Source: Psammoneis japonica
Lineage: Eukaryota
Direction: 5' to 3'
Length of the DNA: 64,000 bases
NCBI GenBank assembly: GCA_008632985.1
Contig: QPGO01000271.1
Span: forward strand, 1-64,000
The translations under genes were made by a program, and so were the position numbers. The notes beneath the pieces were generated by a model that was not told the DNA's origin, ran no database searches, and worked only from the letters and a program-made list of their open reading frames with translations. This document shows positions 1 to 64,000 of this stretch, piece after piece (positions within the stretch are counted from its first letter, which is position 1; every line of letters begins with the position of its first letter).

Positions 1-213
1 AGGTTCATGTGGGTGGATCATGGTGAAAATTCTTGCTGAAGGCTCGCATTGACAACGTCGCTTCTGTTGCATCACGACCAACCTTGTGCGTTGCCACTCA
101 TGCTGTGTGTTTTGTTTGGGCTTTGCGCACTTGTGGCCGTTTGGCTCATGCGCGATTTCTCTTTCTGCGCTGTTTTTTTGTTCTGCAGGGTCTCCGTTGT
201 CACAAGGCGTCTG

Positions 214-1087
214 ACAGAATTCGAAGAAGAGCTGGATGCCGGCATGTCACTCTCTGGCTGAAACACATCCAGCTGCTGTGTGCAAAAAGCCTCTCAACTT
301 GAGCTGTGTGGCAAGTGGTCCAGCTGGCAACCGGCTGCTTGATGGCCTGGGCTCGAATCCTGGGCATCGCATTTTTCAAGTCGTTGGGTCAGATTTGGTC
401 GAGTTGGTCAATCTTGATCAAATCCTGTCATGACGCAATTCTCAGAGTGACGCGCGTGTCTCTCTGTCTCAAAAACGGGGCATGCCTGCCTCAGGGGGAC
501 AGCATTGTCGGGAAGCCCCCCATGAAACCGTCGGGGCAGAATGGGGTGTTGCCGGTGTGCAGAGGGCAGCCGCTCAGCATGCTTTGAATGAGGGGGGCGC
601 GAACAATTGCCCAGGGAGTTTGGAATCTGTCAGCGATGCAGTCGACATTGGCGCGCTGTGGGGAGCGCCATGCACTGCGGCGAGAGTCCATGTTTGAGCC
701 CTGTCTTCAACTCCGGCATCAAAGATGTGGGTGGGTCCCTTGACAGCAGCGGAGCTGTGTGAGAGGAGCGATTCAACCTGCCCGTCCGAACGATCCTGGG
801 TGACTTGGAAACCTTGTGGGGGCGATTCGGGGACAGCTGCATCTGACAGATTCATGACACATGGGGAGCAACAGAATTCGAAGAAGAGTTGAATGCCGGC
901 ATGTCACTCTCTGGCTGAAACACATCCAGCTGCTGTGTGCAAAAAGCCTCTCAACTTGAGCTGTGTGGCAAGTGGTCCAGCTGGCAACCGGCTGCTTGAT
1001 GGCCTGGGCTCGAATCCTGGGCATCGCATTTTTCAAGTCGTTGGGTCAGATTTGGTCGAGTTGGTCAATCTTGATCAAATCCTGTCA
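214..1087 (+). repeat. ~217-bp direct duplication (214-430 and 871-1087)
   Basis: ACAGAATTCGAAGAAGAG...GATCAAATCCTGTCA occurs twice, essentially identical over the last ~195 bp. Confidence 0.9.
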
Positions 1088-1842
1088 GTGTCCCAGAGAC
1101 ACTTTTTCTTGTCAAGAATGTCGCCTCTGAAGCACGATGGCCACGGCAATTCAACGACAAAGCCAAGTCACAGACACAGCATCAGGAAGAGTTCACGACA
1201 AACATGGTGACTTGGAGCCATGATGTCTTCAGCTGGGTGAGCTCTCAGGAGCTCAAACACATCATCGTGCAGTTTTGACAACATTTCTCCCTGACCCGAC
1301 TGTCCATGGTGATGCGGAGTTTGATTTGGCAGACCAGTGCATCATGGTGGCTCTAAAGGCAAAGATTGCTTCTTTTGGCTGCAAGGCAGCATGTGACCCA
1401 GAAACATGTGACTCATTTGCACTGTTTGTCAGCCAGCGCAACAACGTCAGAGCGCAAATTGCAGCGATCCTGACCACCCTTCTCACAGGTGATTTTTGCT
1501 GCCATCACAGGCACAAATGTCAAGGCTTCAATCCTTGGCAGTTGTGTGGACCACGGCTTTTTGTCACATGTCACAGTGTGCAATTTTTCACCATGGGAAC
1601 CCACCTTGTCCCATGGGATCCAACCCTTGACTGTCAGAGTGCCGTCCCTTTTTACCTTTTCAATGCGAAATTCAAAACATTTGGTCTGATGACAAGTCAA
1701 TGCTGATCATTGCATTTCACGGGTTTAAGGAACCTTCCATTGTGAACACTGGTTGTCAAATGAAAGTTTGGATCATGCAACAATGACCATCAAATGCTTC
1801 ATTAAACCCCGCAACTGTTTGCATTGAACACTGATGCGTTGC

Positions 1843-3710
1843 TCACCCGCTTTCCCTTCTCACACCAACAAAAGCCTCCGCTGCATTTTTGTGCTGCAGC
1901 TTGCTCATCATCTGCATCCTCTTCCTTGCTGTCCTTGTCTCCTCTGTTCTTGTCCGTTGCCTCTTCCTCCTTCTCCTTGTTGTTGCTTGAAAGCTCTGTT
2001 GTTGCCTGCATTCTTGCCTCCTTCCCCGCTGGCTTTGTCTTTCTTTTTGATCCCTTGCCTCTTTGTCACTCTTCCTTTTCTTGCCTTCGCTGCACCATGT
2101 GTCGAGCTGCATGCCCTCCTCACGCAACCTGTCTTTCTTCACTTCCGCAAGCAGTTCGTTGAATCGCAATGTCCCTGCATCCTTCCACGAGTCTTGTTGC
2201 CTTGACAGGTCCATGTGCTTGGGTGTTGGTTCCGACTCTTCCTCATCCTCTTTGTCTGAGCCCACCCAGCTCCAACAGTCTTGTCATGACGGGCCTTGTG
2301 CTCCCAACTCTTCCAGCAGTTTTCCAGCATCAACAGCCCCAGAGCCTCGTTGCTTGCTGTGGCCAGACCGGCTGCCTTCCTTCTCCATGTTGTGGTGCTC
2401 TTCGTGAATTTCAGGACGTTTTCGTAGAACCAAGCATGTGCTTCCTTGTTCTTGCGCTTGTCCTCCACAATCGTCTTCAACACTTAAAATCTGATGCTTT
2501 TCATCAATGATTCTCTTCTCTCAATTGCAGCACAATTGAGAATCAACCAAATCTTTCAATGTGTGTGTTTTGTCAATTTTGCCATTCCTTGTCATCTTTT
2601 GAAAATTTTGAATCCATGCAAATTCCAGTTCAAACCTCTCTGTCGCTGCAATGTCAAAATCCACTTCCATGCTGTCAACAGCATGCACAAGCATTTCGCT
2701 CAAAACATCATCGTGAAAACGTGCACCTGTGAAAGTCATTTTTGCTGCAATGAACAAACCCCGCACATGCTTCAACAGAACCAAGCATGCGCTCCCTTGT
2801 TCTTGCGCTTGTCCTCCACAATCGTCATCACTGTCTCCTCTTCCCAAGTCACCAGGAACGGCTCTTCATCTGCTGTCTGATCGTTCTTCTTCCTCTTCTT
2901 GCACTGACCGTGCATCCCCTTGGCTTTGTTGTCTGTCAACACGACTTCAGCAAACATGGGTGCACTTGCCAGCCGTTGCAATGTTCTTGATCGCCTGAGT
3001 GACCGTGCTCTTTTTCGCGTTGATCGCGTGCATGACGCACTTCTTTGCCCAGTCTTCCCATGCTCCTGCCCAGCCTTGCTTGCTGCAATTGCCACCGGCT
3101 GTCTTTTTCCTGATGAGCCGTGACACTTTGCCGCTGCTTGCCATGTCCGCCTTGACAAGTGACTTTGCCTTCAGGAACAGTTCCTTCCGCGCCACCTCTT
3201 CCACCTCTCTCTTTGTGGACTGGTGATCCCCAGTGGCTCCCATCCGCACCAACGCCGCTGCCAGCCTTTGGCTGGTTGGTTGATCTCCAGCCACCCCCAC
3301 ACTTTCTTGCTTCTTCTTCCTTGCCATTGCCTGTGCCACTGTTGCCAATTGTGGGTGGCTCCATGCCTTGGTTCCCCAGCTCATTTCACCATTGGGAAAT
3401 TTTCAAACCTCTCTTTAACACTAAAAATCTGATGCTTTTCATCAATGATTCTCTTTTCTCAATTGCAGCACAATCGAGAATTAACCAAATCTTTTGATGT
3501 GTGCATGATTCAACAATTTTGCCATTCCTTGTCATCTTTTGAAAATTTCGAATCCATGCAAATTCCAGTTCAAACCTCTCTGTTGCTGCAATGTCAAAAT
3601 CCACTTCCATGCTGTTGACAGCACGCACAAGCATTTTGCTCAAAACATTGTGAAAACATGTGCCTGCAAAAGTCATTTTTGCAACAATGAACAAACCCCA
3701 CACATGCTTT
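1843..3710 (-). pseudogene. Degenerate TE-associated accessory ORF, internally duplicated; same family as 42965-44140
   Basis: SWKDAGTLRFNELLAEVKKDR and HAWFYENVLK resemble GWSKEGIKKCN..VVKDR and HVWFLETVV at 42965-43702; block ~2483-2772 repeats at ~3418-3710. Confidence 0.45.
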
Positions 3711-6809: not shown

Positions 6810-8615
6810 GGGAGAAAGAGTTCAGTGCTGCAAGTCCAAGTGTGTGTTGTCATGCTTTGTTTTGATGCAAAAAATCTGGTTCTTTGGTGTGCCTCCAACG
6901 AACATGAAAAAGACACAAACTTTGTAGAAACAAAGCAACAATGAATGCAAAACAGTTTTCCACATTCAAGTGAGACAACGCAGTGCAGAAAACCATCACA
7001 AAAAACCACCATGATGGCGCAGAAGCAGCCGATGCTTGACCATTGCCGTCAAACCTTCTCTTGCAAACAACGCCAATGCAGGTCAACTCCACATTTTACT
7101 CTGACATTGTGTGTCCAAGAAAACAGAGGTGAGAAAGTCCAAAAAAGGATGAAAACTCCTTCTGTGTTTTTGCTGCTGTTGGCATTGCTTGGTTCTCACA
7201 CGGCTGGCAAGGAGTTGGGCCACGGTGATGCCATCGATGGATGTTGGGAACACAAAATCGACTTTGCTGAAGAGCACACAACAAATCGCAGCTGCGAGCA
7301 GGGGCTGCAATGCAACAATGCCATCAATGAAACTTGGGAAAGGGGAGGGGCTGTGGAAATGCTGAGGGGCTGCGTGATGCCGTTGGGCCATGGTGTCACC
7401 CTTGGGATGCCAGTCGAAAGTCAAAACAGCAGTGAGAGATGGAAATGGATGCACCTGTCATGAGGGCATGTTTGCTTTTTGTGTTGACAGAAGGCAAGTT
7501 TATGGTCACTCTTGCTGGTGATTGCTGGTCTGGCTGAATGGCACGACAGCAGCGCAGTGTTGATTTCCCAGTTGCAGATGCATCTGGTGCTCACATGAAT
7601 GTCTGCCTCCACGTCCTTTGCAGTCTTGACGTTGGCAGGCACGGCAAGTCCTCCTGCCCCTTCTCTCTTTGTCAGGGCCACGCAAGACTGTGGCGGAGCC
7701 AATGAAAAGCACTGTCAAAGTCAACGTTTCCATGAATGTGCAACAAATTCGTCAAAACAAAACTTGTTTTTTGATGACAAAACACATGTTGAAAGTCTTT
7801 GGCAAACTTAAATCAAAACAAAAAGGTGACAACTGCACACACAAAAAGAAAATGACAAATTCAACTTGACTCTTAAAATTGAAATTGAAGCTGAACAATG
7901 ACAACATGCTTTTGTGCAATTCATTGTTCCGAAATTTACAAAGGAAAGTGAGCAACACTGCATTGCCACCTCTGATGAAATGTGGAGGGTGAAGGATGGG
8001 ACAAATGGGTCATTGTGTCAAGTCTCAAAAGCAGCTCAAGAGCTTCAGCCAACAAGAATCGTTGGCTTTGTAATTCATCAAGTGAGTGAATGGCAAATGG
8101 CGTTGATTTGGCTGACAGCACAGCCAACATGCGGGTGCGCCTTGACAATCTGTTGCGCTGCATTCTGATGTTGTGGAATGAAAAGAATGACTTTGGTTCA
8201 CATTGATCCATCATGACAGAAGTGTGCAAGCTTTCCCTGGCCCTTTTGGAGCAATCGGGTGAGTGAAAGAGGAGCCACAGAAAGATGCGGACGATGCCAT
8301 TTTGATGCATGGTCATCACGTGGTGTTGTCGTGAGTCGCTGATGGGCGTGCCATGCTTTCTGTTTTTGTCACAGTGCACCTCATTTCTGCATTTCATTTC
8401 TCTGCTTAATTTTTACAAACATTTGCCAAATGTGTTTTGCGTCTGACTTCAGCTCTGCACTTCACCCCTGCTTCCCATTTCCCATTTCCTTTTCCCTTCT
8501 CAGCTTTGCTTTCCCTTTGGCCTTGCTGTTTTGCTTTTGCCCACTGCCCAAACCCCAACCCTGACCCTGAACAAAGGAAGCGCACAAGTCAAGATGAAAA
8601 GCAAAAGACATGACA

Positions 8616-8757
8616 ACACCCCGACTCGCCCGCACCCCGACTCGCCCGACTCGCCAACACCCCGACTCACCGACACCCCGACTCGCCGACACCCCGACTC
8701 GCCAACACCTCAGCTTGTCAACACCCCGACTTGCCAACACCCTGACACCCCAACTTG
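8616..8757. repeat. Degenerate minisatellite of ACACCCCGACTCGCC-like units
   Basis: Tandem alternating CACCCCGA / CTCGCCGA octamers. Confidence 0.85.
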
Positions 8758-9130
8758 TCAAATCTCATTGGGGGCATGTGCCACAGCTGCACTCATGATC
8801 ACGGGCCCAAACAGCTTCACTCAAAAAACCATCAGCAAAATCTTCCATGTTGTCAAATTTGACATCATCTCTTCCATGTTGGCAAAATTGATCAGACCAA
8901 GGTCAACCTTGCACGCAGGTGGAGCAAAGTCATTGGCTGTCATGAGCCCTGAAAACCCATGCGTGCGATTTCTTGCATGTGATGCATGAGCTGGTTTGGG
9001 TTCCACAAATCACACAAAATCACTCACTCCATGACACAGCAGCTGATGGAGAAACATTTGTCATTCTTCTGACTCCTCTCTTTTCTTTCTTGCAATTCAT
9101 CCTGTCAAAGATGTTGAAAGAACCTTCCAT

Positions 9131-11075
9131 TGCTGGCCAAATGTCTCCTCCAAAGTTCCAAATCAAAAGCACATTTCAAGGGCCAACAAAGGCAGGTCAA
9201 TTCTTTGGTTTTGCATCAAAGACAATTTGCATGGTGGCCTCTGTTGACTCATTGCCCCTGTGATTGCACCTCCTCTGTGCACGCTCAAATTGTGGTTTGC
9301 TCATGGCACCAGGCAGTGGCCAAATGGCCACTTCAGAGCCAGCGCTCTTTTTTTTGTCCAGTGGGTGACTCGAATTCCTGCCCCATTTGCCGCATGACAA
9401 CACACGGGGCCAAAGCAATTTTGGGGCCCTGCCCCAGGGCTTTTTCAAAATGAGCCACATGAACAAGCTGACAAACTCAAAGAAAATGCACAGGCATTGA
9501 TGTTTCTGTTCTTTTGAACAAGTGCACCAGCCAAAAAGAGACTCAGCTTGCCACCACTTGCAACCCGTGCTGCCCCTCCAACAGTGCTTGACCATGCAGC
9601 TGCAATGAAATGGATGAAGGACAGCAACATTGAATGCCGCAGGTCTCCTTTTGCACTGTGCTCCTCAAAAAGATGTGCTCCAGCCACATGTGGGCCAAAC
9701 CGTGCACAAAAACGACATTTGCACGATTTTTGCACAGTCCCCAACTTGCAATTGATTTTTCACCACCAAAAGCACAGATTCACACAAACACAAATGATTT
9801 GTGACATCAACTGTTTTTTGGATCGTGTTGCATGTCACGCGCACATTTCCACGTGTTGTGTTCTCCGAAATTGTCTCATGCTCCCTGTTTTGCAAAGCCA
9901 AAGGCTTTCTATTTTCAACATTTGTGAGAACGAAAATGCACTGGATGTGTTCTTTGATGTCTGAAGAACACACCCGGGCTAACTGTTGATGATGTGCTGC
10001 AAGCATGGAGGAGGAGATGCGTTCGTAAAATTGCCTCTTTTTCTGTTGGTGATCATTTGCATTTTCATTGCAGCACAAATTTGCTGCGGAGCTCGCACGT
10101 GGAATTCTGTGGGCCCAATGTCGCACGGAGTCCCGCCCAGGACTGGAGCCCGTCTGCTGGCCAAATGTCTCCTCCAAAGTTCCAAATCAAAAGCACATTT
10201 CCAGGACCAACAAAGGCAGGTCGATTCTTTGGCTTTGCGTCAAAAACAATTTGCATGGTCGCCTCTGCTGACTCATTGCCCCTGTGATTGCACCTCCTCT
10301 GTGCGCGCTCAAATTGTGGTTTGCTTGTGGCACCGGGCAGCGGTCAAATGGCTGTTTCAGAGCAAGTGCTCTTTTTTTGTCCAGCGGGTGACTCAAATTC
10401 CTGGCCCATTTGCTGCATGACAACACACGGGGCCAAAGCAATTTTGGGGCCCTGCCCCAGGGCTTTTTCAAAATGAACCACATGAACAAGCTGACAAACT
10501 CAGGGAAAATGCACAGGCGTTGATGTTTCTGTTCTTTTGAACAAGTGCGCCAGCAAAAAAGAGACTCAGCTTGCCACCACTTGCAACCCGCACTGCCCCT
10601 CTTGTGAAACACTTGCAAAAATTTAGCAGAAACAGGGGCTGCTGGAAAAAGCTGGCATCACACCCATGAGCATTTTATGCAGTGTCACCAAACCAGCTCA
10701 GAAAGGGAAAAAAAAAACAGACATCTTCATGAATGAGAGCAACACAAACAAACATGCAATGAAGCCACTCAAGATTGCAAGGCTGTTTGGTTTGTGTTGG
10801 ACACCATGTTTGAAGATGCTGTGAAAGTGTGCAAGAACTCAGCACACCCAACAGTGCTTGACCATGCAGCTGCAATGAAACAGATGAAGGACAGCAACAT
10901 TGAAAGCCACGGGTCTCCTTTTGCACTGTGCTTCTCAAAGAGATGTGCTCCAGCCACATGCGGACCAAGCCGTGCACAAAAACAACATTTGCGCAATTTT
11001 TGCATGGTCCCCAACTTGCGATTGATCTTTCATCACAAAAAGCACAGATTTGCACAATCACAAATGATTTGCAAC
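9131..11075 (+). repeat. Local duplications: 9131-9580 ~ 10155-10602 and 9579-9805 ~ 10849-11075, with a chimeric MITE (9672-10154) between
   Basis: TGCTGGCCAAATGTCTCCTCCAAAGTTCC and CAACAGTGCTTGACCATGCAGCTGCAATGAAA each start two aligned blocks. Confidence 0.8.
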
Positions 11076-11464
11076 TCCAACAAGACTTGTGTGAGTGTTG
11101 CAATGTCATTGTTTTTTTGCAATCTGTGTTGTTTGTTGCAACAAACAAGTTGCAACACAACGGATGATTTTTGGCAAAATTGTTGCCATCACTTTGAAGT
11201 TGACACAAACAACTTTTCTGCTGTGATGTCAGGTGTGGGTTCCACCTGCACGCACGCATTGAGTCTGCTGAGGGAGTTTGTGACACATGTCCCATGAGGA
11301 CTTGCACACCTGTGAAAAAACCAACAAAATGTGCGCATTCTTGACACCTGCAAAAACCCCTCCTTTCAAGCTTTTTACACACAAATGCTTCACACACGAG
11401 AGATTCACAATTTGTGCTCAAAATTGATTGTTGTTTTGTGCATCACCTGGGGCTGGAGCACGCC
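10942..11464. mobile_element. MITE, related subfamily, TSD AAGA
   Basis: GATGTGCTCCAGCC...GGCTGGAGCACGCC flanked by AAGA on both sides; fragments recur at 58323-58445 and 62608-62898. Confidence 0.8.
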
Positions 11465-13950
11465 AAGAACAAGCACAACAAAAGTGGAGTGAAGTGCAAA
11501 AAGCGAAAATTGTGAGATTGGATTTTGCTCAATCATTTTGGGATTCTCGGAACAAGTTCTCAATGGCCCAAAGCTTCTGCACTGCTTCTGCAGACCAAAG
11601 GCTTTTTGGAGAATGTGCCCATGAAAACAGATTGTCCGGATGCAATTGCCGCTGTCACATGAGATGTCAACATCGTCAAGTGATTGCACTCACAATTTCC
11701 GACATCAAATCATTTTTGTGTGACTGATCTGTCCTTTACACGAACCCACAATTGACGTGTGATTGAGAACACAACAATGTTGATGTGTGAACATGTGCAC
11801 AACAATGCACACCTTGCATGTGCCCCCACCAATTGCACGTCAAAGTCATTCATCAAATGGCACAATGTGACAGACATTGACAGTGTCAACCACGCCACCA
11901 TGTTTGATCTGTGCTGTGCCATCAGTGTGCGCCATTGTCATGGCATGCGGTCCAGCATGTGGCTGCTCTAATTTTTTGGAGCATTTTTTGAGTGGTGTCT
12001 TTTCTCTTGTTCTGTGCACACATGGAGTGTGTTGAGTGTTCTTTTGATTACATTGTTTTTGTTTTTGATTTGTGTTGTCTCCGTTTCTGGACTGGCTTCC
12101 AATCAGCAATGTGTTGGACATCAAAAATGATGTTTTCATTAAAGACGTGTTCCAGCTCCAGGTGGGAGACGCGCTCCAGCTCTGGGTGGGACCTTGCACT
12201 TCTGAACTTTGACACAAATGTTTTTTCATCTGTCGCATGTTTTGCACGTGCATTTCTGCGTGTTCTGTCATAAAAAATTGTTCCACACTGCCTTTTTTGT
12301 GAAGCCAAAGGCTTTCTGATGTTGTCCACATTTGTGCCCAACAAAAATGCACTGGTTGTGTTCTTCAATGTCTGAAGAACATGCCTGGGCACACTGCAAA
12401 GAGTGTGCTTCAAGTGTGGAGGAGGAGATGCATTCGCAAAACTGCCTTTTTTTCCATTGGCAATCATTGACATGTTCGTTGCTCAACAATTTTGCTGCGG
12501 AGCTTGCACGCAGACTTCTGCGGACCCGATGTCACAAAAAGTCCAACCTGTGACTGGAACCTGTTGAGACCTTGCACTGCTGAACTGTGACACAATTGTT
12601 TTTTGTCATCTGTTGCATGTTTTGCGCGCACATTTTCACGTGTTCTGTGACAAAAAATTGCTCCACACTGCCTTTTTTGCAAAGCCAAAGGCTTTCTGTT
12701 GTCTGTGTGTGCTGGGGGTGTGGGCCAGCTTGTTGCCGGAGTTGCAGGGTGGAAGTGCAGCAGCACTTTAAATGTGGAATTTTGGTTTTGTTTTGTTGTC
12801 TGCACTTTTGACAACAAAGATGCACTGGGTGTGTTTTTTAATGTCTGAAGAGTGCACCCGGGCATGCTGCAAAGAATGCACTTCAAGGTTGGAGGAGGAG
12901 ACACGTTCGCAAAATTGCTTCTTTTTCCATTGACGATCATTCATGTGTGCATTGCTCAACAATTTTGCTGCAGAGCTTGCACATGGAATTCTGTGGGCCC
13001 AATGTCACAAAAAGTCCCACCCAGGACTGGAGCCTGTCTGAAGACCAATTGTCCTGGTGTGGCTTGTGCAGCAGCATGACACGTTGAACTCACTGCAAAG
13101 GCTGCTCCTGCCAGCATTCCATCAAAGGGATTCTGGGCATCCAGAGGTGCATGCTGCAAATCAAAAGTGCACATCATGTTGCCAAGTGCTTGGTGCACAT
13201 GCTCAATTGTGGTGTCAGCTTGTGGATTTCGTGCAGCTGTGGGACTGACTTTTGTGTCACAGTCTTCTTGAGCCACGTCTCCATCTGATGAACTCACTTC
13301 CATGGTCACATGCAATTGACAATGCCCAAGGGTGTTTGCTTGACCATGTTCTTTCCAACAGTCCAGCAATGGCTGTGGATTCCTCATTTAGAATTTCCAC
13401 AACTTCAAACAATCCGGCTGCTTGATCAGCCATTGTCAAACATTTTAGGACCAGGGCTTTCTTCTTTCCCTTGCAATGCATTTTCCATGGTCCAATGAGA
13501 TCCACACACAGTTGTTCCCATGGCGCTGATTCTGCACACTCAAGAGGCAAATGTCCACATTTCATGTGTTCCCATTTGAATTTCTGGCATGTCTCACATT
13601 TTGACATGCATTTTTGCATGTCTTCACACAAGGCAGACCACCACAAGTGTTGTGAGATTGTTTCTTCTGCTCTGTTTGTGCCAGGATGAACAAGGTGCGC
13701 ATGGCGCCAATCTGTTGCCACTTTTTGCAATGTCTTTGGAGCAACGATTTCATCCTTGTGACATGTGAGCAACCGGTCTTGCTTGCCTCCACAAAAAGTC
13801 TTTACATGAAGTGTCTCTCATTGGACAATTTGGAGAGAATGTCTTTGTCCTGTTTTTGTTCAGCATCAAGTGCTTTGCATGTTTAACAGATGGACATTGT
13901 CACAGGATTTTGGTGGGTCCTTGTCAGCCATTTCTTCTGTGCTGAGATTT
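11465..13950 (-). mobile_element. Old Ty3/Gypsy remnant: integrase plus diverged 3' LTR (~11465-11818) homologous to the LTRs at 33051/33428/41104
   Basis: HLVHPG..CETCQKFK..PWEQLCVDLIGPW (13257-13772) and NPQA..TPGQLVF (12956-13387), resuming as IIFDVQHIADW left of 12143; 11556-11594 is the TA-converted reverse complement of LTR core TCTGTAGAAGCAGTGCAGAAGCTTTAGGCCATTGAGAAC; PPT-like GTGCAATTGGTGGGGGCA. Confidence 0.8.
12144..13038. mobile_element. Nested MITE pair: inner 12168-12565 inserted in the left TIR of outer 12144-13038
   Basis: Two adjacent TIR starts (GACGTGTTCCAG, GACGCGCTCCAG) and two TIR ends; outer TSD TAAA/TGAA, inner GGGA/GAGA; splits the Gypsy integrase frame. Confidence 0.8.
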
Positions 13951-14978
13951 TTCACAGGTTCTGACATCTTGAATGTTGGGCAGAGGAAATGGAGCACGCA
14001 CTGGCCTCTTGTTCAGTTCACAACAGCCTGACAGGAACCAAACTCGACCATTTTTCTTTGGTTGAACAAAGGTTGGAGCTGCTCATTTGGAGCAATCAAT
14101 CACTCTCAAGACCTTTGGCTCACACAGTCACTCAACTTCCTTTCAGCGAGTCATTCTTTAGAATTGCTGTGCATCAATTTTTTTTAAATTGACAGTTTTC
14201 CTCACTGAGAGTGTCTGAGACTTGGACATTTTCTGAGCTGCACATGCAGTTGCCATTCAAACTGAACAAATGCTGACATTCTGTCATGAACACAGGCAAT
14301 TTATGTGCCATTGGCCATTGGTCCACCATCGCTCATTTGGTGGCCCTGGCAGCGCAACATCTCACAATTCTAGAACCTGTTGATGCTGTTCAACACCCTG
14401 TCTTGTCTTTCACCCAATTCTCAGCCATCATGGCAGCATTTGCTCACTTTGTCAGTGCCAACATGCTGTGATGTTCATCGCCTGGAACGTGCACAGCAAA
14501 CGGCACGACGGCATTGTTGTGGTCGATCGATTTTTGCGGCAAGCGCCATGTTGGTCCCATGGTTGCTCACGTGTGTGTGTCGTTGTTCATGGATGTGAAC
14601 AATGTGCTCTTGGAGACCAGAGCCGTGATCTGTTGGACATGACGTCAGTGGACGGAATGTTTGATCACATGGATGGAATGTGTTGGCTGAGACACACAAA
14701 CGTCGTGATCAAGACAAGACAATGTTTCATGCATTGAGGTCTGTCATTTGATCACAAACATTTTTTGACAAATCAAGGTGCATTGTCAAATTGTTTGGAC
14801 ACTGCACATGTGGATGCATGTCTGTTGCTCATCATTGCTCAGGAGTGACACCGCCTGCTCGCGGGTTCACCAAGTGGGAACCACCAAATTGGCACGAGAA
14901 CCACACATTTTTCTCACTTTTCTCCACTCACACAAGTGGATGCTCACGCGTCGAAACGCAAACAACTGTTGACACACA

Positions 14979-16393
14979 ATGGCTGCTGCCGCAGCCTTTG
15001 CCGCTTGTCTTGCACGTTGTGGGCACAATGCGCAGACGCACACCTGCACAGCCGGTCAAGGCTTTGCTGCCATTGACGACCTGGAACAGGCCCCTTTGGC
15101 AGAAATTGCTGACATGACTGAGGGTGTTGTGAAAAGAGTGGATGCCGCCGCTGGCCCCAAGTCTGCTTCCCACACCTGGCGAATCGCAAGTTCAAGGCAC
15201 TGCGCACATGGATTGACTGCCGCAGAGCCCAAAGGCAACAGCCGACTGCTGCGCTCTTTGCTGGTGACGTCATTGGAACATGGACGGCATGTCTCATGGA
15301 ACTGAAACAATTCAAGTCAGCAGACTCAGATGACGAATCGGCTGCCAAGATGGCCGTGGAGCTCAGGAATCTGTGTGACTGGCCTGCCTTCCAAGAGTCA
15401 CTGGAGACCGAACTGCACCACCACCACAGTGCCGTCACCGGCATGCCCCTTGTCCACCTGATTGGGGAGCATGAAGACGTCGCCACTGAAATGTTGGCTG
15501 CCACCTGCACTGCCATTGACGAGGACCTCATTGCCACTGCTTGACTTGCAGGAGCTCAGCACACGCAGGGTGGGCAATGCCTGTGTGATCTCTTGAAGAA
15601 GTCAGTGACATGGGGGCCCGGATGGGCTTTTGTCAAACCCCGCAATCGCGATGGTCGCACTGCTTTCTTTGCACTCAAGAGGCAGGTGGAAGGATCGGCT
15701 GCCGCCACTGCCCAAAAGAACGATGCTCATGCACAGATTGCCACTGCGAAGTGCACCGGACGGGGTCGATTTACTTTCGACCAGTGCACTCAGCCCCATC
15801 AAAAGGCTCACAACAACTTGTCTGAGCTTGATGAGCCGGTGGCTGAGACCAAGAAGGTCTCTGACTTTCTAAAGGGCATCTCCAACCCTGGGTTGGAGAC
15901 TGGCAAGAGTGCAGTGGATGGAGACCTGATGAAGCTGGTGGATTTTGAAGCATGCCAGCAGCACATGAAGACTCTGAAAGAAAATGCAAAGAACTGCAAT
16001 GCTGACACTTGCAGAATCGCATCCATCCAACGCCGCAACAACCGGCATGGAAACCCTGGCGGAAAGCACCAACCTAAAAAGGACAAGCCCAGGATCCGGT
16101 CAGGCCATTGTCCCTTTGAAGAGTGGAGTGCTCTTGATGGTCCTGAACGAGAGCAAGTTCAAAAGCTCCGTGATGCCAAGAAAGCCAAAAAGAAATGCAA
16201 AGCTGCAGCTGCGTCCTCGGATGATGAGTCGGTTGATGCCAAAACTCGCGCTGTTAAGAAAGTGGCCATTGCCGAGCCCAGTCCTCAACCTGCTGATGAA
16301 CCAAAGGACTCCGAAGAGCCTGACAAACTTGCCGCCAATGCAGGCACCCAGTTCGGACGCAGTGCACATGAGAAACCTCAGAAGGAGGAATGA
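14979..16393 (+). pseudogene. Copia A gag (disrupted)
   Basis: WPAFQESLE..GMPLVHLI, DGRTAFFALKRQVEG, FTFDQC..HQKAHNNL, ETKKVSDFLKGI, typical of stramenopile Copia gag; split across ORFs. Confidence 0.75.
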
Positions 16394-16417
16394 ACAGTTG
16401 CGCCAGCACCAAAAGGC

Positions 16418-18057
16418 ATGGAACCGAATGTTGCTGAACCTGCTGGCACTGTTCATTTAACCAGGCGATTCTCAAAGGACACACGTGTCTCTTTGTCATC
16501 TGCTGGGAATTCAGATGATGAAGCCACCACTGATTTGGACTCGCACGCTGACACGTGTGCTGTTGGGTCCATTTTTGTGATGCACTCTGGCATCGACAGA
16601 ATTGTTGTGGTGCACCCTTGCTCCGAAGAGCATGCACCAATGGAAAACATTCCTGTTTGCACGGCTGCCACCGTGTGGGTTGATCCAACTGATGGACAAC
16701 CACATCTGCTGCCAGTCCACGAGGCCATGTTTTTCGGGGACAAGATGACTGACACCCTTCCATGCCCCAACCAACTGCGAGCGAACGGGCTGATTGTCCA
16801 TGACACCCCTTGCCAGTTTGATCCGACTGGCACACACTCCATTTCTTTTCCTGACTCGAAGATCAGGACACCATTGAGAATGCGAGGTGTTGCTTCAGTC
16901 TTTGATTCACACAAGCCGACAAAGGAGGATCTGGAGAACCTTCCCCAGCTGGAACTTGCATCACCCCTGAGATGGGAGCCTTCTGCTGATGCCCTGGTGC
17001 AAAAGGAGGAAGCGCGTGCGTGTGCCAGTGTGCGCCAAGGATCAGCAAAGTCGGACAGATGGTCGATGATGATGAATGCAACCAGGTGTGTTGCTTCCAT
17101 TCACTCATGCCAAACATCCCATCATGACGAGAATGTCATTGTGGATGCAAATGATGATGATTCTTTGCATCACCGCCTGGTTGCTCAGGTGAATGTCTCC
17201 CACAACGACACTGAGGGAGACGGGCTGCATGACCAGCATGACCCAGATGTCCACCCAGATTGTGCCGAGCGGAAACGGGTGCATGCACTGTCAACCTCGA
17301 GTCATGCATCGACCATCACGCCCGAGACACTCTCTAAAAGTTGGAACATTGGCCTGACGGCCGCTGAGAACACCCTTGGAGTGATGACCCAGGCAGGGGT
17401 CCGCAATGTCTGCACACCATCCGAACGGAAAGTCCGGAAGAAAGCCCCTTGGCTTAAGTTCACTGCTGTCAAGGGACACTTCTACTCCGACCAGATGTTT
17501 TCGAAGGTCAAATCGATGCTTGGCGAGACAGGAGGAAGTGCACTTGTCAACGGAAGAGGGTGTGACAGGTTCCATCCTTGGAAGAGGAAACAGGACCACC
17601 CGGACGCCGTCATGTCATTTGTGCATGATGTTGGCGTGCTGCAGGTCCTTGTGTTGGATGGCGTGCCGGCAATGGCGGAAGGCCACACCAAAGAGATCAG
17701 CAAGGAATGCAGGACACACCAGGAGGTGTCCACCCCGTGCAGCCCCTGGCAGAACCCAGCCGAGGCATCCATTCGTGAGTTGAAGAAAAGAGTCCGTGTG
17801 GCTCTACGCCGGACTGGCGCTCACAGGCGACTTTGGTCCCACAGCGCCAAATGGACATGTGACATCCGACGCATGATTGCACCTGGCATGTCGGACATGG
17901 GAGGACAAGTCCCAGAAGAGGAGGTGACAGGTTCGACACCCAACATCTCGTCCCTCTCTCTCTTTGATTGGTGTCAACCTGTTCATTGCTGCATGCCTGT
18001 GGCAGAGTTCCCACACGAAAAGCAGTGCATTGGCCGTTGGCTCGGAGTGGCTGACAA
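16418..18057 (+). pseudogene. Copia A pol: aspartic protease and integrase
   Basis: LDSHADTC protease motif; LSKSWNIGL; FVHDVGV..LVLDG..PCSPWQNPAEASIRELKK integrase core; one Tyr in the 560-aa ORF. Confidence 0.85.
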
Positions 18058-19066: not shown

Positions 19067-19236
19067 TGTCTTGTGTGGATGTTGTGAGCTAAAGAGGCTT
19101 GCGACTGCTCAGTGGTCCATGAGCTAGCTGCGTCAGAGATTCTTCGACATCATCTCTCTGAGTCAGCACGAATGAGCTCCATCTGTCCATCCGTCCGTCT
19201 GTCCGTCTGTCCTGCGAGCTCTAGCTGACCGTGACA
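19067..19236 (-). repeat. 3' LTR of Copia B
   Basis: TGTCTTGTG...GACCGTGACA; aligns without gaps to 28569-28738. Confidence 0.95.
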
Positions 19237-28523: not shown

Positions 28524-28568
28524 GTTTGTTGTCAAAAAGGTTGCAGAGGCAACGAAGGCTGCACAACC

Positions 28569-38020: not shown

Positions 38021-38051
38021 ACAGCGCCGCCGACGTGATCGCTCCAACCAA

Positions 38052-42305: not shown

Positions 42306-42331
42306 TGCGATCAAATTTGTTGCCATCATTT

Positions 42332-45552: not shown

Positions 45553-46100
45553 TTAATGCAACTTTCTTCTGTGTGAGCAATGCATTGTCAATTGGCCCTT
45601 TGCACAAACCTGCTTTTTACCTCTGCTGACTTGCTGCTTGGCCAGTTTTGCATTCCAACAACTGCTTGTTCGCACTCTTGCCATGTCGAAATTGTGGACT
45701 GGACATGCCATGTTCCTTCGACCCGAATTCGTTTTGTTGGGCAAAGCTCGGTGCAACGTTCTTGCATCAAAAACAAATGCAGTGCCTGCTTCTCCAACCA
45801 GCAATTGTTTTTCCAAACCCAACCTGACCAAGTGTCTTTCACGTTCCTTCTCATTCAATGTTGCCTCACAACCAACTGGCCATGTCTCAACTGCACCATT
45901 GTGCTCCATTGTGTCATTGAGGAACAGAAACATGGTGAAAATTTTGTTGCCAGGTGACAACTTTGTTTCCACGTAATTGCGATGAATTTCCCCCTTTGAC
46001 CAGAAGTTTGATCTTGAACTTGAAGCAGGAGCGTTTGCCAGTGTGTGCCGGGATGTCATTCTGCATGAATCACCTGCCAGGAGAAAGCCAGGAATTAACT
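45553..46100 (-). pseudogene. PhyH-like 2-oxoglutarate/Fe(II) dioxygenase domain
   Basis: IHRNY (HxD; CGC-AAT derivable from CGC-GAT by CpG decay), TMFLFLND..NGAVETWP, GEAGTAFVFDARTLHRALPN..R. Confidence 0.7.
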
Positions 46101-47844
46101 CCAACATTTTTTCTGCCAGCTCAATGCCTTCCGCCTTGTCCTTTTTGTCAATGGCAAACTCACCAACAAAACGGTGTCCTTCCTTCTCTTGCTCACTGCT
46201 TGGTGCCTTGTTTGCCAGTGTTGTCATCTGGTTGAGTGGGGGTTGTGGTGTTTTGAATTTTTGCAAGCAGCCTTTTTTTCCTTCCTGGTGCACTCTTTCT
46301 TTGGACCCAGCCATCTTGCTCTTGACGACATGAGATTTCATTTCACCTGGGTGTGTCAGCAACTTGCCATGTTTCTGACATGACGTTGTTGGCCAATGGG
46401 CAAATTTCCGGCATCCATCAACAGAACACTTTCATGCCATTCTCTGAAAATGCCGGTTCCACCAAATCAAATGGCACCCAGTCTTTTTTTGAGTGGAGCA
46501 GACCCAATTCAGCAAAAGTCCACATCCATTGCTGTGCAACAAACACGGCTTTCTTGCAAAATGTGTGTTGCCAATGGCAGCCCATCTGTCGGGTGCACCA
46601 CAGACATTTTTTTCATAAACAGCCCCATGTGATGCAATCTTCGTTGATCCTGTTTGCTGCATGATCTCATTGAATGGGCCATCCCAGCCATCTCAAAAGT
46701 GCAGAAAACAATTTGGTCACACACTGTCTTGCCAGTGTTGTTGTGAGATGTTTTCATGTCGACACCGCGGCAGACACAAAGGAACAGCCACCATCCACCA
46801 TTCATTCCACGTCACAAACTCTTTTGGAAGAATGCACACAATGAACAATTGCAAATGACAGGTGTCACTTTTTCATCAATGCACCTGTCTGTCAACAGAG
46901 CAATTTGGCATCACTTTTTTGTCATTGCAGCTGTGTGTCAACAGAGCAATTTGGCATCACTTTTCTGTTGTTGCACACATTTGTTGACAGAAGAATTTGG
47001 CGTCAGTTTTTTGTTAATGCACGTGTCTGTCAATGCACACCTTTGGCATCATTTTTTTATTTGCACACTTGACACCAGCCTGCACATTGTCGTGATGCAA
47101 AGCACATCTCCCGCAGCAAACCACACTCTCCCAAATCTTGTCCAAGTCACTGATCAATGCATGTTGAGCAGTGAACAGACAACGTTGGGGTGACTCTGTC
47201 TCTTGTCCTCTGCAGCCTTGTCATTTCCTTTGCAAAACAACAACCTCAAAATCATCCCACCCCAAAGAATGCCACCCAATCACTTGCCTGTTGCGCCACC
47301 TTGCCAAAATGGAACCAACGAATCTCTTTTTCGTCCAGTGCATCACACTTCTTTCCCAATGACATTCCACCTGACTCAACCTGACATTGCTTTGCCGCTG
47401 CCATGTCCCAAAACAGCGTTGACCAACGATCCATCTGGCCGTTGTCTCCCGCTGGTGCATCTGGCCCCGTTTGGCACAGAAAACAGCCTTGACACCAAAT
47501 TGAGGCTCTGCATTGTTCTCCCACACGTTGGGTGAGTGAACGCGGTCATGTTTGTTCATCACTCAAAAAAAGGGGTTTGACAGATCACTTGATCCGCGGC
47601 ATTGTGCTGATGATGTTTTTGATGCAAAAATCTTTGTGTTCAAGAGCAGTGGGAAGAGCAATGTGTGCAACCCAAACCACCTTGGTGAATTTGCAAAATG
47701 GCTGGCACACCCAAGCTGCATTAGATTGGCTTTGAAGGAGGCGGCCCTCCCAGAGCTGGCTCAACAAAAGAAAAAGAGGCGCGCAGGAAAATCATTGATG
47801 CTCGCCACTTCCAAACCAAAAAATGCAAAAGATCCACAGCGGCT

Positions 47845-57649: not shown

Positions 57650-59836
57650 TCGTGCCACTGGTCAGGAGGTGCCCCACTGGACCAAATGGGAGGCATTTGA
57701 CACATGCGGCATTTCTCAGGATGACGTTCACATGATCAAACAAAAGCACTTCCAACAATTCTGGATTTTCATTTGGTTTGTCTTGCAACACTTTCAACAG
57801 ATTGCAGTTGTTCGTCTCAAAAATCAAAAGGCAAGTGCGCACCCAAAAATGCATGCAAAGTGCACGCACTTGCCCTTCGATTTGGCAAAAAATGGATTTT
57901 GAAAAGTTCAATTTTCCAAATGCACAAATTGCCAAATGATGGCAATCGAGAGGGAGAGTTGATTTGCCACCAAGTTTGCTGACTGGAAAGTTGGCAGGAG
58001 GGAGGGCATGCAGCATTGGATTGGAGGCATCAAAGGACCAGTTGGAGCACAATCCAAATGGACATGTCAAGTCAGCAACAGTTTGAAAGCCATTGACAAG
58101 GGTTTCTTTGACACATTCACAACAGTGGATGCAAGACACAAGGCAACAACCAACTTTCTTGATGTTCATCACATGGGGTGTGTTTTCCAGCTGGTCTCCA
58201 GATTGCAGCCAGACATCTGCGACTGGTTTCATCAGCTGGCCAACACTGCCAACAAACATGGGTGGGGCACCTGCTCAGATTAAAGAAGCTGAATTTCCCT
58301 TTCAACCTCAGACACAACCACAGGCGTGTTCCAGCCCCAGGTGACGCACAAAACAACAATTGATTTTGAACACAAGTTGTGCATCTTCCAGTGCGTGGAG
58401 CATTTTCACACAAAGCACTTGAGCAGGTTGGCTTTTGCGGGCATCTGGAGCATCAACATTCAAACAAGAACAAGGATGAGGAAGAGGAAGATGAGGAGAA
58501 GAAGAGGAGTGAGGAGGCATCGGAGGAGGAGGAGGAGGAGGAGGAGGAAACCAATGACAACAATGACAAAGATGACAATGACAAAGACAAAGACGACACC
58601 CCCCTCCAGATGAAGAACCAAAGAAAGATTCTTCTGATGAGGGGGGCAAACAGGGGGGGGAACAGCAAGCCACCAGATGATGACAACGTGACTTCTGAAA
58701 AAGACAGAAAGTCAGAGGAGAATGACAAGCAACAGGGGGGGGGGGGGGGGCAAGGAAACAACACAGCAGCTGAAGAGGAGCCGTCTGCTGCAAACCCTGA
58801 GCAACAGGTTGAAGAGGACACCCAAAACATGGAGCAGCAACAGCATCCTGAACAAGCTCACACATGTGGAGAGCAGCGATGCAAGCAAAACTTGGGTGAC
58901 CATGCATTTGGCTTCCTCATCCTCTGAAGCGGAGCTTGGGGCATCAGATGATGACAACCCTTCAAGTGCTGTGGCTGCTGCCAAAGTTTCAGCCATGATG
59001 AAAACCCATCAATGCCACCAAAAAGGAGTTGTTCGAGAAATGCTGGATTGCGAGACAAAGAAGGAAGCCAGGAAGTGCAGGGGGGCAATGGCAGAGGCAG
59101 AAAGTGCAGAAAAAAGGAGCGCACAACGAGGAAGAGAATTGAGGCAAACAAGAAGAAGGGGGGGNNNNNNGGGGGGGGGGAGGAGACAAGAGAGAAGGCA
59201 AGGGAGGCAGCAAAAAAGGAGAAAAGGAAGAATGCCAGCAACCCAAAGAAGGACATGCCATGACAGAAAGAGTGTTGGCAGAGGACCCACCACACATCAA
59301 AACAAATTCGGCCAAGAAAAAAATCATCCAAGTGTCTGTGGAACAAAAAACAACAAAAATGAAGTTCAGGCAGTTGGGCACATGCATTGCCAACAAAATG
59401 TTTGTGTGGAGCATCGCAGTCTCAAAATGGCTGCATTGCTGTGAATCCCACAACATTCATTGTCCACTTTTTGTTTTCAGGTTTGTGGCAATTTGGCACT
59501 CAGTTGCTTGTTCAAGTGTTGCTTTTGGTCATGCTGTCAGTCACAACATGTGAAAAACAATGCAGCGCTGATTCAATTTTTGAAATGACATGTTCTTGGT
59601 TGGACTGTGGTTGACAGGAGCAAAATTGCATTGATCATTGGCAACTGCACGTCCTGAGTTTGACTGTGGTTGCAAAATGGATGCGGGTGTGCATCATTTT
59701 TGCAAGGTTTGTTCTTCAACTGGAGCCACTTTGCATCAATTGGGTGGGGTCTGTCATTCAACCGGAAGCAATTCATGACACCTCATGACCCAAACCCAAA
59801 CCCTCCCATCCCAAATGCACTGCGCACAGTGGCAGA

Positions 59837-61560: not shown

Positions 61561-62531
61561 AAAAAGGCAGGTCTGCACTGAAAAGGTCTGGAGACATGAC
61601 AGAATCATCAGCTGCAAAAGTGGTGACATCATTGTCAGGGACAGCTGCAGAGTGAGAATCTGCATTGTTGGTCGGGGACAAAGGAGAGGGAGCAGTGTGT
61701 TTTGTGTGCTGGTGGATCAGTGTGTCGTGGTGGCTGGCTTCTGTGAAACTGAGAATGCGGTCTTTGCATTGAGGTCAATTTTTGCAAACAACCCAGCAGG
61801 CACTGCAGGGAGGGCACTGGAGGGTCACTGCTCATTTGTGCAGGCACTTGTCAAATGAGATGTGAAGAGCCATTTGGCAGCAGTGAGGGCATGTTCAAGC
61901 AAATTGGCTGGACAACTGCCACACAAACCACAGGAGAGTGACACAGGTTCCACAGACTAGAATGACAAGTCTGACTGACAACAGCCAATGATGAGTGTGT
62001 TGACAAAAGGATGGAGGCAACTCAGGCCAACACATGAGCACAATGGAGATGATGTGAGAAGGACACGTCATTGGTGATGTGGACACCTGTGACAATGAGG
62101 TGACATCATGAGAAACTTGGGACAAGAAGAACAATGATGATGGAACACTGCCGAGTGAAAAAATCATGCTGACATGGTGGGAAAGGAGGTGTGGCTGTGG
62201 GGCGACATGTTGGGGGAGCAGAAGTTGAGCACACCCAACATGCAGCACCCCCCCCCAACATGCAGACACCCAGGATGATGCATCTTGGGGGAGAAAACCA
62301 CTCCCCCATCATGCCAGAGCATTTCTGACTGATTGGTCCCCCAACATTTGGCAGGTTGGGTTGTTCTCTCATTTCCTGTGGAGTTGCGCAAGAAAGCACA
62401 CATCACAGATGATGTTTTCTTTTGCATTGATGAAAATGTGCAGCTGAATGAAGCATGGGCTGGCCTTGTCTCCTTGCTGCTTGTGCATGCACTGATGCCA
62501 GGCAGCAATGAACACCATGCACCCTTTGGTT

Positions 62532-63140
62532 GAAAACCTGGAAATCCAGAAAAAAGGAAGCCAAGAAATCCGGAAATGCAGAAACCCAGAAATCCAGAAA
62601 TGCAGAAGATGTGTTCCAGCCGTGTGTGAACCAAATTGTGCACAAAAACAACACATGCACAATTTTTGCATGGTCTCTGACTTGCGATCGATCTTTCTCC
62701 ACCAAAAGCATGGACTCGTGCAAATTTAAATGATTTGCAACACTGACAAGACTCATGTCAGCATTGCAATGTCATTGGTTTTGTGCAATCCATGTTTTTT
62801 GTTGCAACAAACAAGTGGTGACACAATGGATGATTTTTGGCAAAATTGTTGCCATCATTTTGATGTGAACACAAACAACTTTTCTGCAATGATGTCTGGC
62901 ACCAGAAATCTGGAAAAAAGGAAACCCAGAAGTCCAGAAAAAATGGAGCCCAGAAACCTGGACAGATGGAAAAACAGAAACCCGGAAATCTGGAAAAATG
63001 GAAACCCGGAAATCCAGAAAAACAGAAACCCGGAAATCCGGAACCCGGAAATGTGGAAACCCGGAAACCCGGAAAAACAGAAACCCAGAAATCTGGAAAC
63101 TCTGAAACCTGGAAATGTGGAAACCCGAAAACCTGGAAAA
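62532..63140. repeat. GAAACCCG/GAAATCCA-type 8-9-bp minisatellite, interrupted by a MITE fragment (62608-62898)
   Basis: Dozens of GGAAA/GAAAC units; the insert aligns with ~10942-11232. Confidence 0.85.
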
Positions 63141-63157
63141 ACAGCAAAGATTTTGGT

Positions 63158-64000
63158 TTCAGCTCAGACCCCACGGCATGTGCAGAACTTTCCAACAATT
63201 GCCGTGCATGTCTGCTTGGCAGTCCATCCCCTTGATCTTGATTCAAACAGAGGTGCAAAGACAAAACACCTCCCTTGGATGCAGATCGTGGCATGCTCAA
63301 ATCTCAAATCATGCGCTGCCCTGAATTTGATCATGGGGTGCCCTCAATTGAGAGTGGGCACCCTCAATCAAGGGTGGGCACCCTCAGCCAAGGGTGAGTG
63401 CCACAAATTGATGGCAAAAATGTGAGGAAAACAGGAGCTGAAGCCGCTTTCTTGCAATGAGGTGAGCTTGTTTGGCATGAATGACAGCTGCAATGCTGCA
63501 AATTCATTGACAGAAACAGCACACTCTTTGTCTCAGCTCAAACTCAACAGGTTGCACAGAACTTTCCAACAATTGCTGCACATGCCGGGTTGGCAGCCCC
63601 ACCCCTTTTTCTTGATTCAAACAGATGCAAAGACAAAACACCTCCCTTGTGGACACAGATTTTGGCATGCTCAAATCTCAAATCAAACACTGCCCTCAAT
63701 TTGATCATGGGGTGCCCTCAATGAAGGGTGGGCACCCTCAATCAAGGGTGAGTGCCCTCAACTGAGTGTGAACACCCCACATTGATGGCAAAAATGTGAG
63801 GAGAACAGGAAATGAAGCCACCTTCTTGTGACGAGGCAGGCTTGTTTGGCATGAATGACAGCTGCAATGCCGCGACGTCAATCACAAAAACCAACACACT
63901 CTGTGTTCAAGCACCTTGCTGTTGCCAACATTTTGTTGCAGCTCAGACCCCAGACTCCACGGGATGCACAGAAATTTCCAACAATTGCTGTGTGTGTCAT
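63158..64000 (+). repeat. ~375-400-bp tandem repeat (two full copies plus the start of a third)
   Basis: CAGCTCA.AC..CAGAA.TTTCCAACAATTGC at ~63160, ~63534, ~63939; the TTGTTTGGCATGAATGACAGCTGCAATGC block occurs twice. Confidence 0.85.

Follow-up and report, generated by a model that had tools for sequence, protein, structure and literature searches.

What could strip a long run of transposon-derived DNA of nearly every TpA dinucleotide? The question is raised by a stretch of the Psammoneis japonica genome (GenBank assembly GCA_008632985.1, contig QPGO01000271.1, positions 1 to 64,000 of the forward strand), which we refer to as the window: 64000 nt, 48.6% G+C, 7 N. Expressed as the ratio of observed to expected dinucleotides (o/e), TpA stands at 0.111 across the whole window, CpG at 0.54, and CpA and TpG both at 1.64. 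An earlier note, written from the sequence alone, had proposed a directional A:T to G:C mutator that acts on repeats. We find that transposon copies in the window have lost TpA to TpG and CpA. The direction of this change, its restriction to TpA, its strand symmetry, its timing after insertion and a rate far above CpG decay and background are observed, and we hold this part with high confidence. The whole statement, namely that a DNA-level, enzymatic process converts TpA to TpG or CpA in integrated transposons, is aimed at mobile or foreign DNA and serves as a defence resembling fungal repeat-induced point mutation (RIP), seems to us probable.

TpA depletion and the TA-retaining island

The window contains 468 TA dinucleotides in total. 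Beyond 33-42 kb there are 0-9 per kb, and each 2-kb bin beyond 32-42 kb has a TpA o/e of 0.01-0.11. The near-absence of TA outside ~33.3-41.5 kb, as claimed in the earlier note, is therefore real; the TA-retaining stretch is real as well, and 500-nt bins give it sharper borders than those first proposed, at 33051-41470. Outside this island, TpA occurs 197 times against an expected 3574 (o/e 0.055), and CpA, TpG and CpG have o/e values of 1.70, 1.67 and 0.49, respectively. Mononucleotide shuffles of the same DNA (n=200) gave a mean of 3577 TA (sd 43) and never fewer than 3457. Both flanks are TpA-depleted, CpG-poor, degenerate repeat DNA, i.e., old transposable element (TE) debris, with a TpA o/e per 2-kb bin of 0.03-0.11 at 1-33050 and 0.01-0.08 at 41471-64000 (CpG o/e 0.22-0.53 in the latter). 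The missing dinucleotides can be traced. Outside the island, the TA deficit of 3377 and the CG deficit of 1712 add up to 5089, and the TG excess of 2406 and the CA excess of 2326 add up to 4732; the excess nearly balances the deficit, hence the lost TA and CG now stand as TG and CA. Inside the island, a TA deficit of 378 is accompanied by a TG+CA excess of 381 and a CG deficit of just 43.

Depletion on this scale changes how the DNA reads as potential coding sequence. On the + strand, TAA occurs 176 times and TAG 85 times, and TGA 1514 times. There are 47 open reading frames (ORFs) of at least 200 aa on the two strands, most of them without any domain, and the erasure of TAA and TAG accounts for these long stop-free frames. 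In such DNA, gene finders would predict too many genes, with false long ORFs in all frames. We scanned 116 stop-to-stop ORFs of at least 140 aa with Pfam; this returned mobile-element domains plus one weak PhyH-like relic, and no host gene was found among them.

We then asked what the island is. It is no single-copy or genic control but a young LTR-type insertion (LTR, long terminal repeat) with a nested DNA transposon that has terminal inverted repeats (TIRs) and a DUF7869 domain, not a host gene, and it is itself already 48-77% depleted. The insertion interrupts an older repeat. Self-blastn and a repeat search identified 14263-19237 as inverted copies of 28569-33050. The older repeat is uninterrupted at 14263-15996, and its inverted paralogue is split, so that 31759-33050 resumes at 41469-41853; the uninterrupted paralogue of the island's target lies at ~14632. 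The element occupies 33051-41470 on the + strand, starts with TG, ends with CA and is flanked by a GATC target duplication. Its direct terminal repeats of ~370 nt comprise a tandem pair at the 5' end, with copy a (33051-33425) as the outer member and copy b (33426-33800) next to it, and the 3' LTR, copy c (41102-41470); all three are on the + strand, and a polypurine run stands just before the 3' LTR as read from the LTR alignment. No Pfam domain, gag and pol included, was detected at E<=0.01 in 36 of the island's 68 ORFs of at least 35 aa. Since the scanned ORFs lack a gag or pol domain, the LTR class is assigned from structure, and the element is either non-autonomous or decayed.

The shift in TpA level coincides exactly with the borders of the insertion. 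In 500-nt bins, the left border (~33.05 kb) separates a TpA o/e of 0.04-0.09 outside from 0.39-0.57 inside, and the right border (~41.5 kb) separates 0.34-0.84 inside from 0.00-0.03 outside. With the nested insert left out, the LTR element has a TpA o/e of 0.52 and a CpG o/e of 1.06. In a sequencing run, X1, the summed word depth is 7000-15800 over the LTR element and 170-400 over a Copia-type relic described below; this 40- to 200-fold excess over low-copy parts points to many copies of the LTR element, bearing in mind that depth is not copy number.

The nested transposon (37398-40713, - strand; 3.3 kb) encodes a putative transposase of the DUF7869 family (Pfam DUF7869, E 3.2e-19) and has a TpA o/e of 0.23. 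Its 35-nt TIRs (37393-37427 and 40674-40708) are 83% complementary, and the two arms differ, for example, as ATATAAG vs ATGTGAG. X1 contigs that derive from other copies of the host LTR element skip from 37397 to 40714. The DUF7869 ORF (38052-40397, - strand, 781 aa) is still open, with conserved tyrosines replaced. Its protein has 109 homologues, the best at 41% identity; the nearest that bears a name is a diatom protein at 31%, too distant to speak for any taxon. The earlier note labelled this element Sola; the features established here are the DUF7869 domain and the 35-nt TIRs.

Direction, specificity and timing of TpA loss

Because the LTRs of an element start out identical when it inserts, the differences among these LTRs arose in DNA after integration. 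We aligned copies a, b and c over 367 ungapped columns and took TA as ancestral at 28 TA-type sites, i.e., 84 site-copies. Variable columns number 29 of 367; all are transitions, with no transversion and no change outside pyrimidine-purine (YpR) steps. The 28 inferred TpA sites span 56 columns, and 27 of the 29 variable columns are among these (P 2.7e-20); the 27 are A:T to G:C changes if TA is the ancestor. TpA was changed in 34 of 84 site-copies, 16 times to TG and 18 times to CA, vs 3 of 66 site-copies for CpG (Fisher P 1.1e-7); per site, CpG loss in the LTRs is ~9x slower than TpA loss (4.5% vs 40%). ApA (0/78), CpA (0/87) and GpA (0/84) were unchanged, as were all 801 positions outside TA or CG sites. 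The rate at TpA within TE DNA is far above both CpG decay and background. These counts bear out the earlier proposal of a directional, TpA-specific A:T to G:C change on either strand.

The three copies have lost different shares of their TpA: 19 of 28 ancestral sites are mutated in copy a, 11 of 28 in copy b and 4 of 28 in copy c. Site by site, the copies read TA/TA/TA at 7 sites; TA, TA and TG at 6; CA, TA and TG at 4; CA, TA and TA at 4; CA, CA and TA at 3; TA, TG and TG at 2; and CA, CA and TG at 2. CG/CG/CG is found at 20 sites, and two or three states including CG at another 2. The 4 sites that show TA, TG and CA together can hardly be read otherwise than as TA to TG in one copy and TA to CA in another. 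The comparison extends to an older copy at 11.5 kb, which is 74-77% identical to the young LTR copy: at 44 of 44 TA (YpR) sites, the old copy has TG or CA.

Not every sequence context has fared equally. Among the 197 TpA that survive outside the island, TTAA accounts for 63, GTAA/TTAC for 39, CTAA/TTAG for 35, CTAC/GTAG for 24, ATAA/TTAT for 19, CTAG for 12, ATAG/CTAT for 4 and GTAC for 1, with no ATAT and no ATAC/GTAT. Among the 271 TpA of the island, 22 are TTAA, and ATAT, ATAC/GTAT and GTAC together make up 75; ATA-type contexts are the commonest in the young island. Either TTA/TAA is a poor substrate, or the survivors are new TpA made by C to T changes. In the LTR copies, extended-context trends are weak and non-significant, and the TTA/TAA trend runs in the same direction as among the survivors.

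Old paralogues within the window tell of the same change over a longer time. Across the 49 alignments of paralogues that self-blastn returned (15901 nt), transitions outnumber transversions by 1732 to 528, and 1316 transitions are at YpR/YpR sites. Among dinucleotide differences, the double change CA<->TG is the most frequent (365 cases); CG<->TA does not occur (0). For the 42 pairs outside the island (13624 aligned nt), we fitted a two-copy model of CpG decay to the sites CG=CG (247) and CG<->TG/CA (383). The model predicts 74 discordant TG/CA sites, and 338 were seen. The surplus implies that ~528 TpA were lost independently and that the ancestral TpA o/e was ~0.62, an ordinary value; hence the old copies had normal TpA at the start and were depleted where they lie. 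Like real old DNA, they also hold ordinary substitutions and indels.

To see what TpA loss has done to proteins, we compared the DUF7869 protein and a Copia-type pol relic with their homologues. The Copia relic (21965-24837, - strand) is spread over two reading frames, has hardly any Tyr left and combines reverse transcriptase (RT) and integrase-SH3 parts: RVT_2 at 21965-23470 (- strand, E 2.7e-30) and SH3_retrovirus at 23488-24837 (- strand, E 3.6e-07). At 12 columns where Tyr is conserved among 60 homologues, the DUF7869 protein has Y3 H4 C4 F1, and at 10 such columns, judged against 12 homologues, the Copia RT has Y0 H3 C3 F2 L1 T1. His or Cys thus stands at 14 of 22 conserved-Tyr columns in two unrelated TE proteins, in agreement with the earlier observation that invariant tyrosines read Cys or His. 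The peptides quoted for it are all present on the - strand: HTDD (22466-22477), KCKAR (22868-22882), DCVQAF (22718-22735) and DTHCFSPL (39216-39239). Meanwhile, other conserved residues are retained at 137 of 173 columns in the DUF7869 protein and 138 of 217 in the Copia RT (Fisher P 1.8e-4 and 6e-5, respectively). Overall, Tyr makes up 0.64% of the DUF7869 protein vs 3.41% in homologues, and 0.2% of the Copia RT vs 2.7-4.2% in 12 homologues. Conserved Ile columns in the Copia RT read I4 V6 T5 L2 A1 E1. The ratio of His to Cys at conserved Tyr is 4:4 in the DUF7869 protein and 3:3 in the Copia RT; TAY to CAY and TAY to TGY are equally frequent, hence both strands are affected. LTR, Copia and TIR elements have all been hit, in support of the earlier view that the change acts on transposon copies.

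Relatives with the same deficit did not turn up among annotated proteins. Tyr-poor proteins are absent from the 122 homologues of the DUF7869 and Copia RT proteins, where the lowest Tyr content is 1.36%. The Copia RT has 13 homologues, the best with 58% identity over 44% of the query, and a protein atlas returned generic RVT_2 clusters only. A metagenome scan with the Copia protein gave 48 pattern matches, of which 0 were confirmed, and a scan with a 27-nt LTR word gave 0 matches. With Tyr, Ile and Leu codons rewritten, homology searches for such TEs fail.

Candidate chemistry and rival explanations

We read the course of events as follows. Transposon copies start with ordinary TpA and are eroded in place after integration until almost none remains. 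TpA becomes TpG or CpA through A:T to G:C change at the A or the T, the two strands being hit equally, and a separate, slower decay of CpG to TpG or CpA runs in parallel. The process would be enzymatic: adenine at 5'-TA-3', in the duplex DNA of silenced chromatin, may be deaminated to hypoxanthine, which is read as G. Its target would be mobile or foreign DNA and not the whole genome, and its role a genome defence like RIP. Taken alone, the adenine deamination chemistry is our tentative choice, one we would put somewhat below an even chance.

Several points weigh against this account or blunt it. First, the three LTRs may not date from a single insertion event, as copy a lies in tandem to copy b, and 2 of the 28 sites taken as ancestral TA are so assigned from CA/CA/TG alone. 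Second, deamination of A and modification of the T on the other strand are inseparable by sequence because they affect the same base pair. Third, the window is without a host gene, so repeat targeting, as opposed to a genome-wide bias, is something we infer. Fourth, time since insertion is not a simple measure of TpA loss: although it arrived last, the DUF7869 transposon has a lower TpA o/e (0.23) than its host LTR element (0.52). The greater depletion may be explained by the mutational history that a cut-and-paste element carries with it. Fifth, depletion of the host element is patchy, with an o/e of 0.11-0.29 at 34.25-35.75 kb and 0.72-0.93 at 36.0-37.25 kb. Together with the uneven LTR losses (19, 11 and 4 of 28), the patchiness seen in 500-nt bins would suit an episodic, clustered process. 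Lastly, run X1 may be the assembly's source sample and hence provides no independent proof.

Thymine could be the modified base in place of adenine. 5-Formyluracil pairs with G, and oxidised T mispairs with G. A dioxygenase of the TET/JBP type would oxidise T at TpA in silenced TEs to 5-hydroxymethyluracil (5hmU) and then to 5-formyluracil, and mispairing with G would give T to C. The palindromic YpR step and the strand symmetry fit such a T-directed route equally well. In dinoflagellates, 5hmU stands in for T with a preference for TA and TC, lies mostly in repeats and silences TEs, according to the parts of the report considered here (PMC11572971). A TpC effect is nevertheless missing from the window: TC has an o/e of 1.04, and only 1 of 78 TC site-copies in the LTRs is changed, solely through overlap with a changed YpR site. 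There is also no TET/JBP domain among the scanned window ORFs, where the sole 2-oxoglutarate (2OG) oxygenase relic is PhyH-like and decayed, and those same parts of PMC11572971 do not report heritable T to C from 5hmU. We consider thymine chemistry unlikely.

A second alternative dispenses with targeting. A TpA-specific A:T to G:C bias might affect the entire genome, TpA being kept by selection in genes and active TE masters or by recent arrival. The window offers no contrast between repeats and unique neutral DNA, and the TpA level follows the age of each element, as this alternative expects. Yet the non-coding LTRs of the young element retain TpA (o/e 0.39-0.84 in 500-nt bins), and the old paralogues started at an o/e of ~0.62. 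A mutator that takes 40% of TpA and 0 of 801 other positions would, if active throughout the genome, also strip the masters of their non-coding TpA. In addition, a like process known from the alga Bigelowiella natans is restricted to certain parts of the genome, the remainder holding 6.0% TpA (Mettrop et al., bioRxiv 10.64898/2026.01.13.699255, 2026). An untargeted bias appears improbable.

Error-prone repair synthesis was among the options raised at the outset. Pol eta makes A to G errors at WA motifs (W, A or T) in antibody hypermutation, and a Pol-eta-like activity in heterochromatin might act on the same hotspots. This option does not hold up. WA covers ApA, yet in the LTRs ApA was changed in 0 of 78 site-copies vs 34 of 84 for TpA and no transversions occur, and Pol-eta spectra are less pure. 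We give it very little credence.

Could TA be truly present and merely misread? A modified base at TpA in repeats might be miscalled; a modification-dependent miscall could also yield so pure an LTR signature, and no sequencing platform is recorded for either the assembly or X1. Strand-specific miscalls would, however, give strand conflict, with many TA/CG consensus calls and branching k-mer graphs, and neither is seen. Nor do k-mer contigs break every ~20 nt as would be expected; TA stands at 5%, and CG<->TA differences between paralogues number 0. Run X1 contains 45% of sampled words of 28001-38000, and 2203 of 11647 of its k-mer contig pieces on 24001-44000 are at least 99% alike. In the low-copy DUF7869 part, there are X1 contigs of 241-446 nt (word depth 150-250) that show 0-8 differences and cross many former TpA sites unbranched. 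Differences to other copies in X1 comprise 844 transitions and 107 transversions, and many of them form adjacent TG<->CA pairs. The old copies carry ordinary substitutions and indels, and the same signature appears in Illumina data of B. natans (10.64898/2026.01.13.699255). The chance that the depletion is a base-calling artefact is slight indeed.

The least credible of the rivals is A-to-I editing of TE transcripts by an ADAR-like enzyme, fixed through reverse transcription: several elements in the window are retroelements and a U is preferred 5' of the edited A (10.64898/2026.01.13.699255), but the LTRs of a single element have come to differ since it inserted, the strands are equal (16 TG vs 18 CA; His:Cys 7:7), and the TIR transposon, which moves by cut and paste, is affected too, along with its TIRs.

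Three further candidates were tried and rejected. CpG decay is real, with a CpG o/e of 0.49 outside the island vs 1.06 in the young element (nested insert excluded). As the sole cause it fails, for it cannot remove TA, explains 74 of 338 discordant sites and leaves a TA deficit of 3377 vs a CG deficit of 1712. RIP leaves the opposite footprint to the one found (TpA o/e 0.055, CpA 1.70, TpG 1.67). The earlier argument that neither RIP nor decay of 5-methylcytosine (5mC) can produce the pattern, the one by direction and the other by its inability to remove TpA, thus holds. GC-biased conversion is not dinucleotide-specific.

Other contents of the window and related systems

A Ty3/gypsy-type integrase zinc-binding relic, TpA-depleted, lies at 13260-13817 on the - strand (Pfam Integrase_H2C2, E 4e-09, 36.9 bits). 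The PhyH-like 2OG-Fe(II) oxygenase relic, also TpA-depleted, occupies 45553-46431 on the - strand (Pfam PhyH, E 9e-05, 23.3 bits). It has 80 library proteins at E<=1e-3 (best 1.5e-17), its relatives are ~250 aa long, and it could be either a host pseudogene or cargo of a TE or virus. Its Tyr content is 0.34% vs 1.87% in 30 homologues; with just 2 conserved-Tyr columns, it is uninformative as a non-TE test case. Neither rRNA nor tRNA nor any further Rfam family was detected in the window.

Two arrays with a period of 8 nt and GAAAYCYR-like units lie at 62509-63163, in a TpA-free part, and account for 25 overlapping 84-nt copies. The N positions are a single N at 42271 and a run of six at 59165-59170, with no further gaps. 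Summed word depth in X1 peaks at ~62000 in bins 26002-26668 and 28003-28669. A short repeat in bin 26002-26668 recurs at 42.3 and 54.4-54.9 kb and may be a very abundant small element, depth again not being copy number.

The earlier note had known of no named system of this type. There is one, reported in 2026: Mettrop et al. (bioRxiv 10.64898/2026.01.13.699255) describe TpA-only A:T to G:C hypermutation of integrated viral DNA in B. natans. Of 302 nuclear mutations that arose in mutation-accumulation lines, 231 lay within two viral inserts, one from a giant virus (186 kb, single copy) and one from a virophage (25 kb). All but one of the 231 (230) were A to G or T to C, all 230 at TpA, at ~6e-7 per site per generation. 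Such mutations occurred in just 11 of 15 lines, at 2-45 per line, an episodic activity of which the patchy depletion in the window may be a hint. The viral inserts still hold TpA, at 3.3% (186-kb region) and 9.2% (25-kb region), and the rest of the genome has 6.0%. Genome-wide, 124 clusters of at least three 1-kb windows are TpA-poor and CpA+TpG-rich, and RT and DDE domains are enriched in TpA-poor coding sequences. The authors suggest that an ADAT2-like protein deaminates adenine in DNA in a defence role, with transposons "potentially" among the targets, and call their own first study not conclusive. Our full-text searching for TpA to TpG/CpA change in repeats turned up this preprint only.

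The parallels are close. In both species TpA alone is affected, the products are TpG and CpA by strand, and the bias toward GC is extreme; in both, the long-term footprint is a loss of TpA accompanied by a gain of CpA+TpG. Among coding sequences of B. natans, the TpA-poor ones are enriched in RT and DDE domains. The proven targets described there are viral inserts, whereas those seen here are copies of LTR, Copia and TIR transposons. Here, too, depletion is near total (o/e 0.055 over ~55 kb), and action after insertion follows from LTR divergence. The window matches the B. natans process in each feature for which its sequence could be tested. It is not a new category because TpA-only hypermutation had already been described in B. 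natans; it is a new, much more extreme instance of that kind, with transposons as the substrate.

Other known systems share parts of the pattern. Dinoflagellate 5hmU has the preference for TA (and TC), the concentration in repeats and the silencing of TEs, but it is an epigenetic mark that is not reported as a heritable T to C mutator in the parts of PMC11572971 considered here, and TpC is unaffected in the window. Deamination of 5mC in methylated transposons yields TpG and CpA and also occurs in the window; unlike the process seen here, it is unable to remove TpA and is slower per site. Hyper-editing by ADAR and editing of retroelements by APOBEC in animals likewise produce clusters of transitions through deaminases and thereby inactivate mobile or viral sequences. 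ADAR acts on dsRNA and would mark one strand of the final DNA copy, whereas the window is symmetric, changed after insertion and affected in a DNA transposon too; APOBEC gives C to T or G to A, and the window A:T to G:C. Fungal RIP, like this process, ruins integrated repeats in place by dinucleotide-specific transition hypermutation; both strands are affected, and a dinucleotide footprint remains. The direction is reversed: RIP turns C:G into T:A mainly at CpA and makes TpA, and here TpA is destroyed. To our knowledge, RIP was long the sole mutational genome defence known against repeats, and it runs from C to T. We know of no natural enzyme system, before the B. natans work of 2026, that was recognised to edit A:T to G:C heritably in DNA.

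What the window adds is that a TpA-only process can saturate ordinary LTR, Copia and TIR transposons, and that its action after insertion is cleanly measurable from LTR pairs. TpA o/e, taken together with discordant TG/CA between paralogues, is a simple genomic assay for the process in other genomes. These results are a strong reason to seek the enzyme, which would be of interest as a natural, sequence-specific A to G (or T to C) DNA editor. It is conceivable, if rather less than an even bet, that the window represents a second case, possibly outside the chlorarachniophytes, of a natural base-editing defence, one in which a duplex-DNA adenine deaminase (or thymine oxidase) that is strictly TpA-specific rewrites every TpA in integrated mobile DNA until no Tyr codons and no TAA or TAG are left. 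If this is true, transposons, and not only viral inserts, would be the main long-term substrate of the defence, and the finding would point to a natural A:T to G:C editor of DNA.

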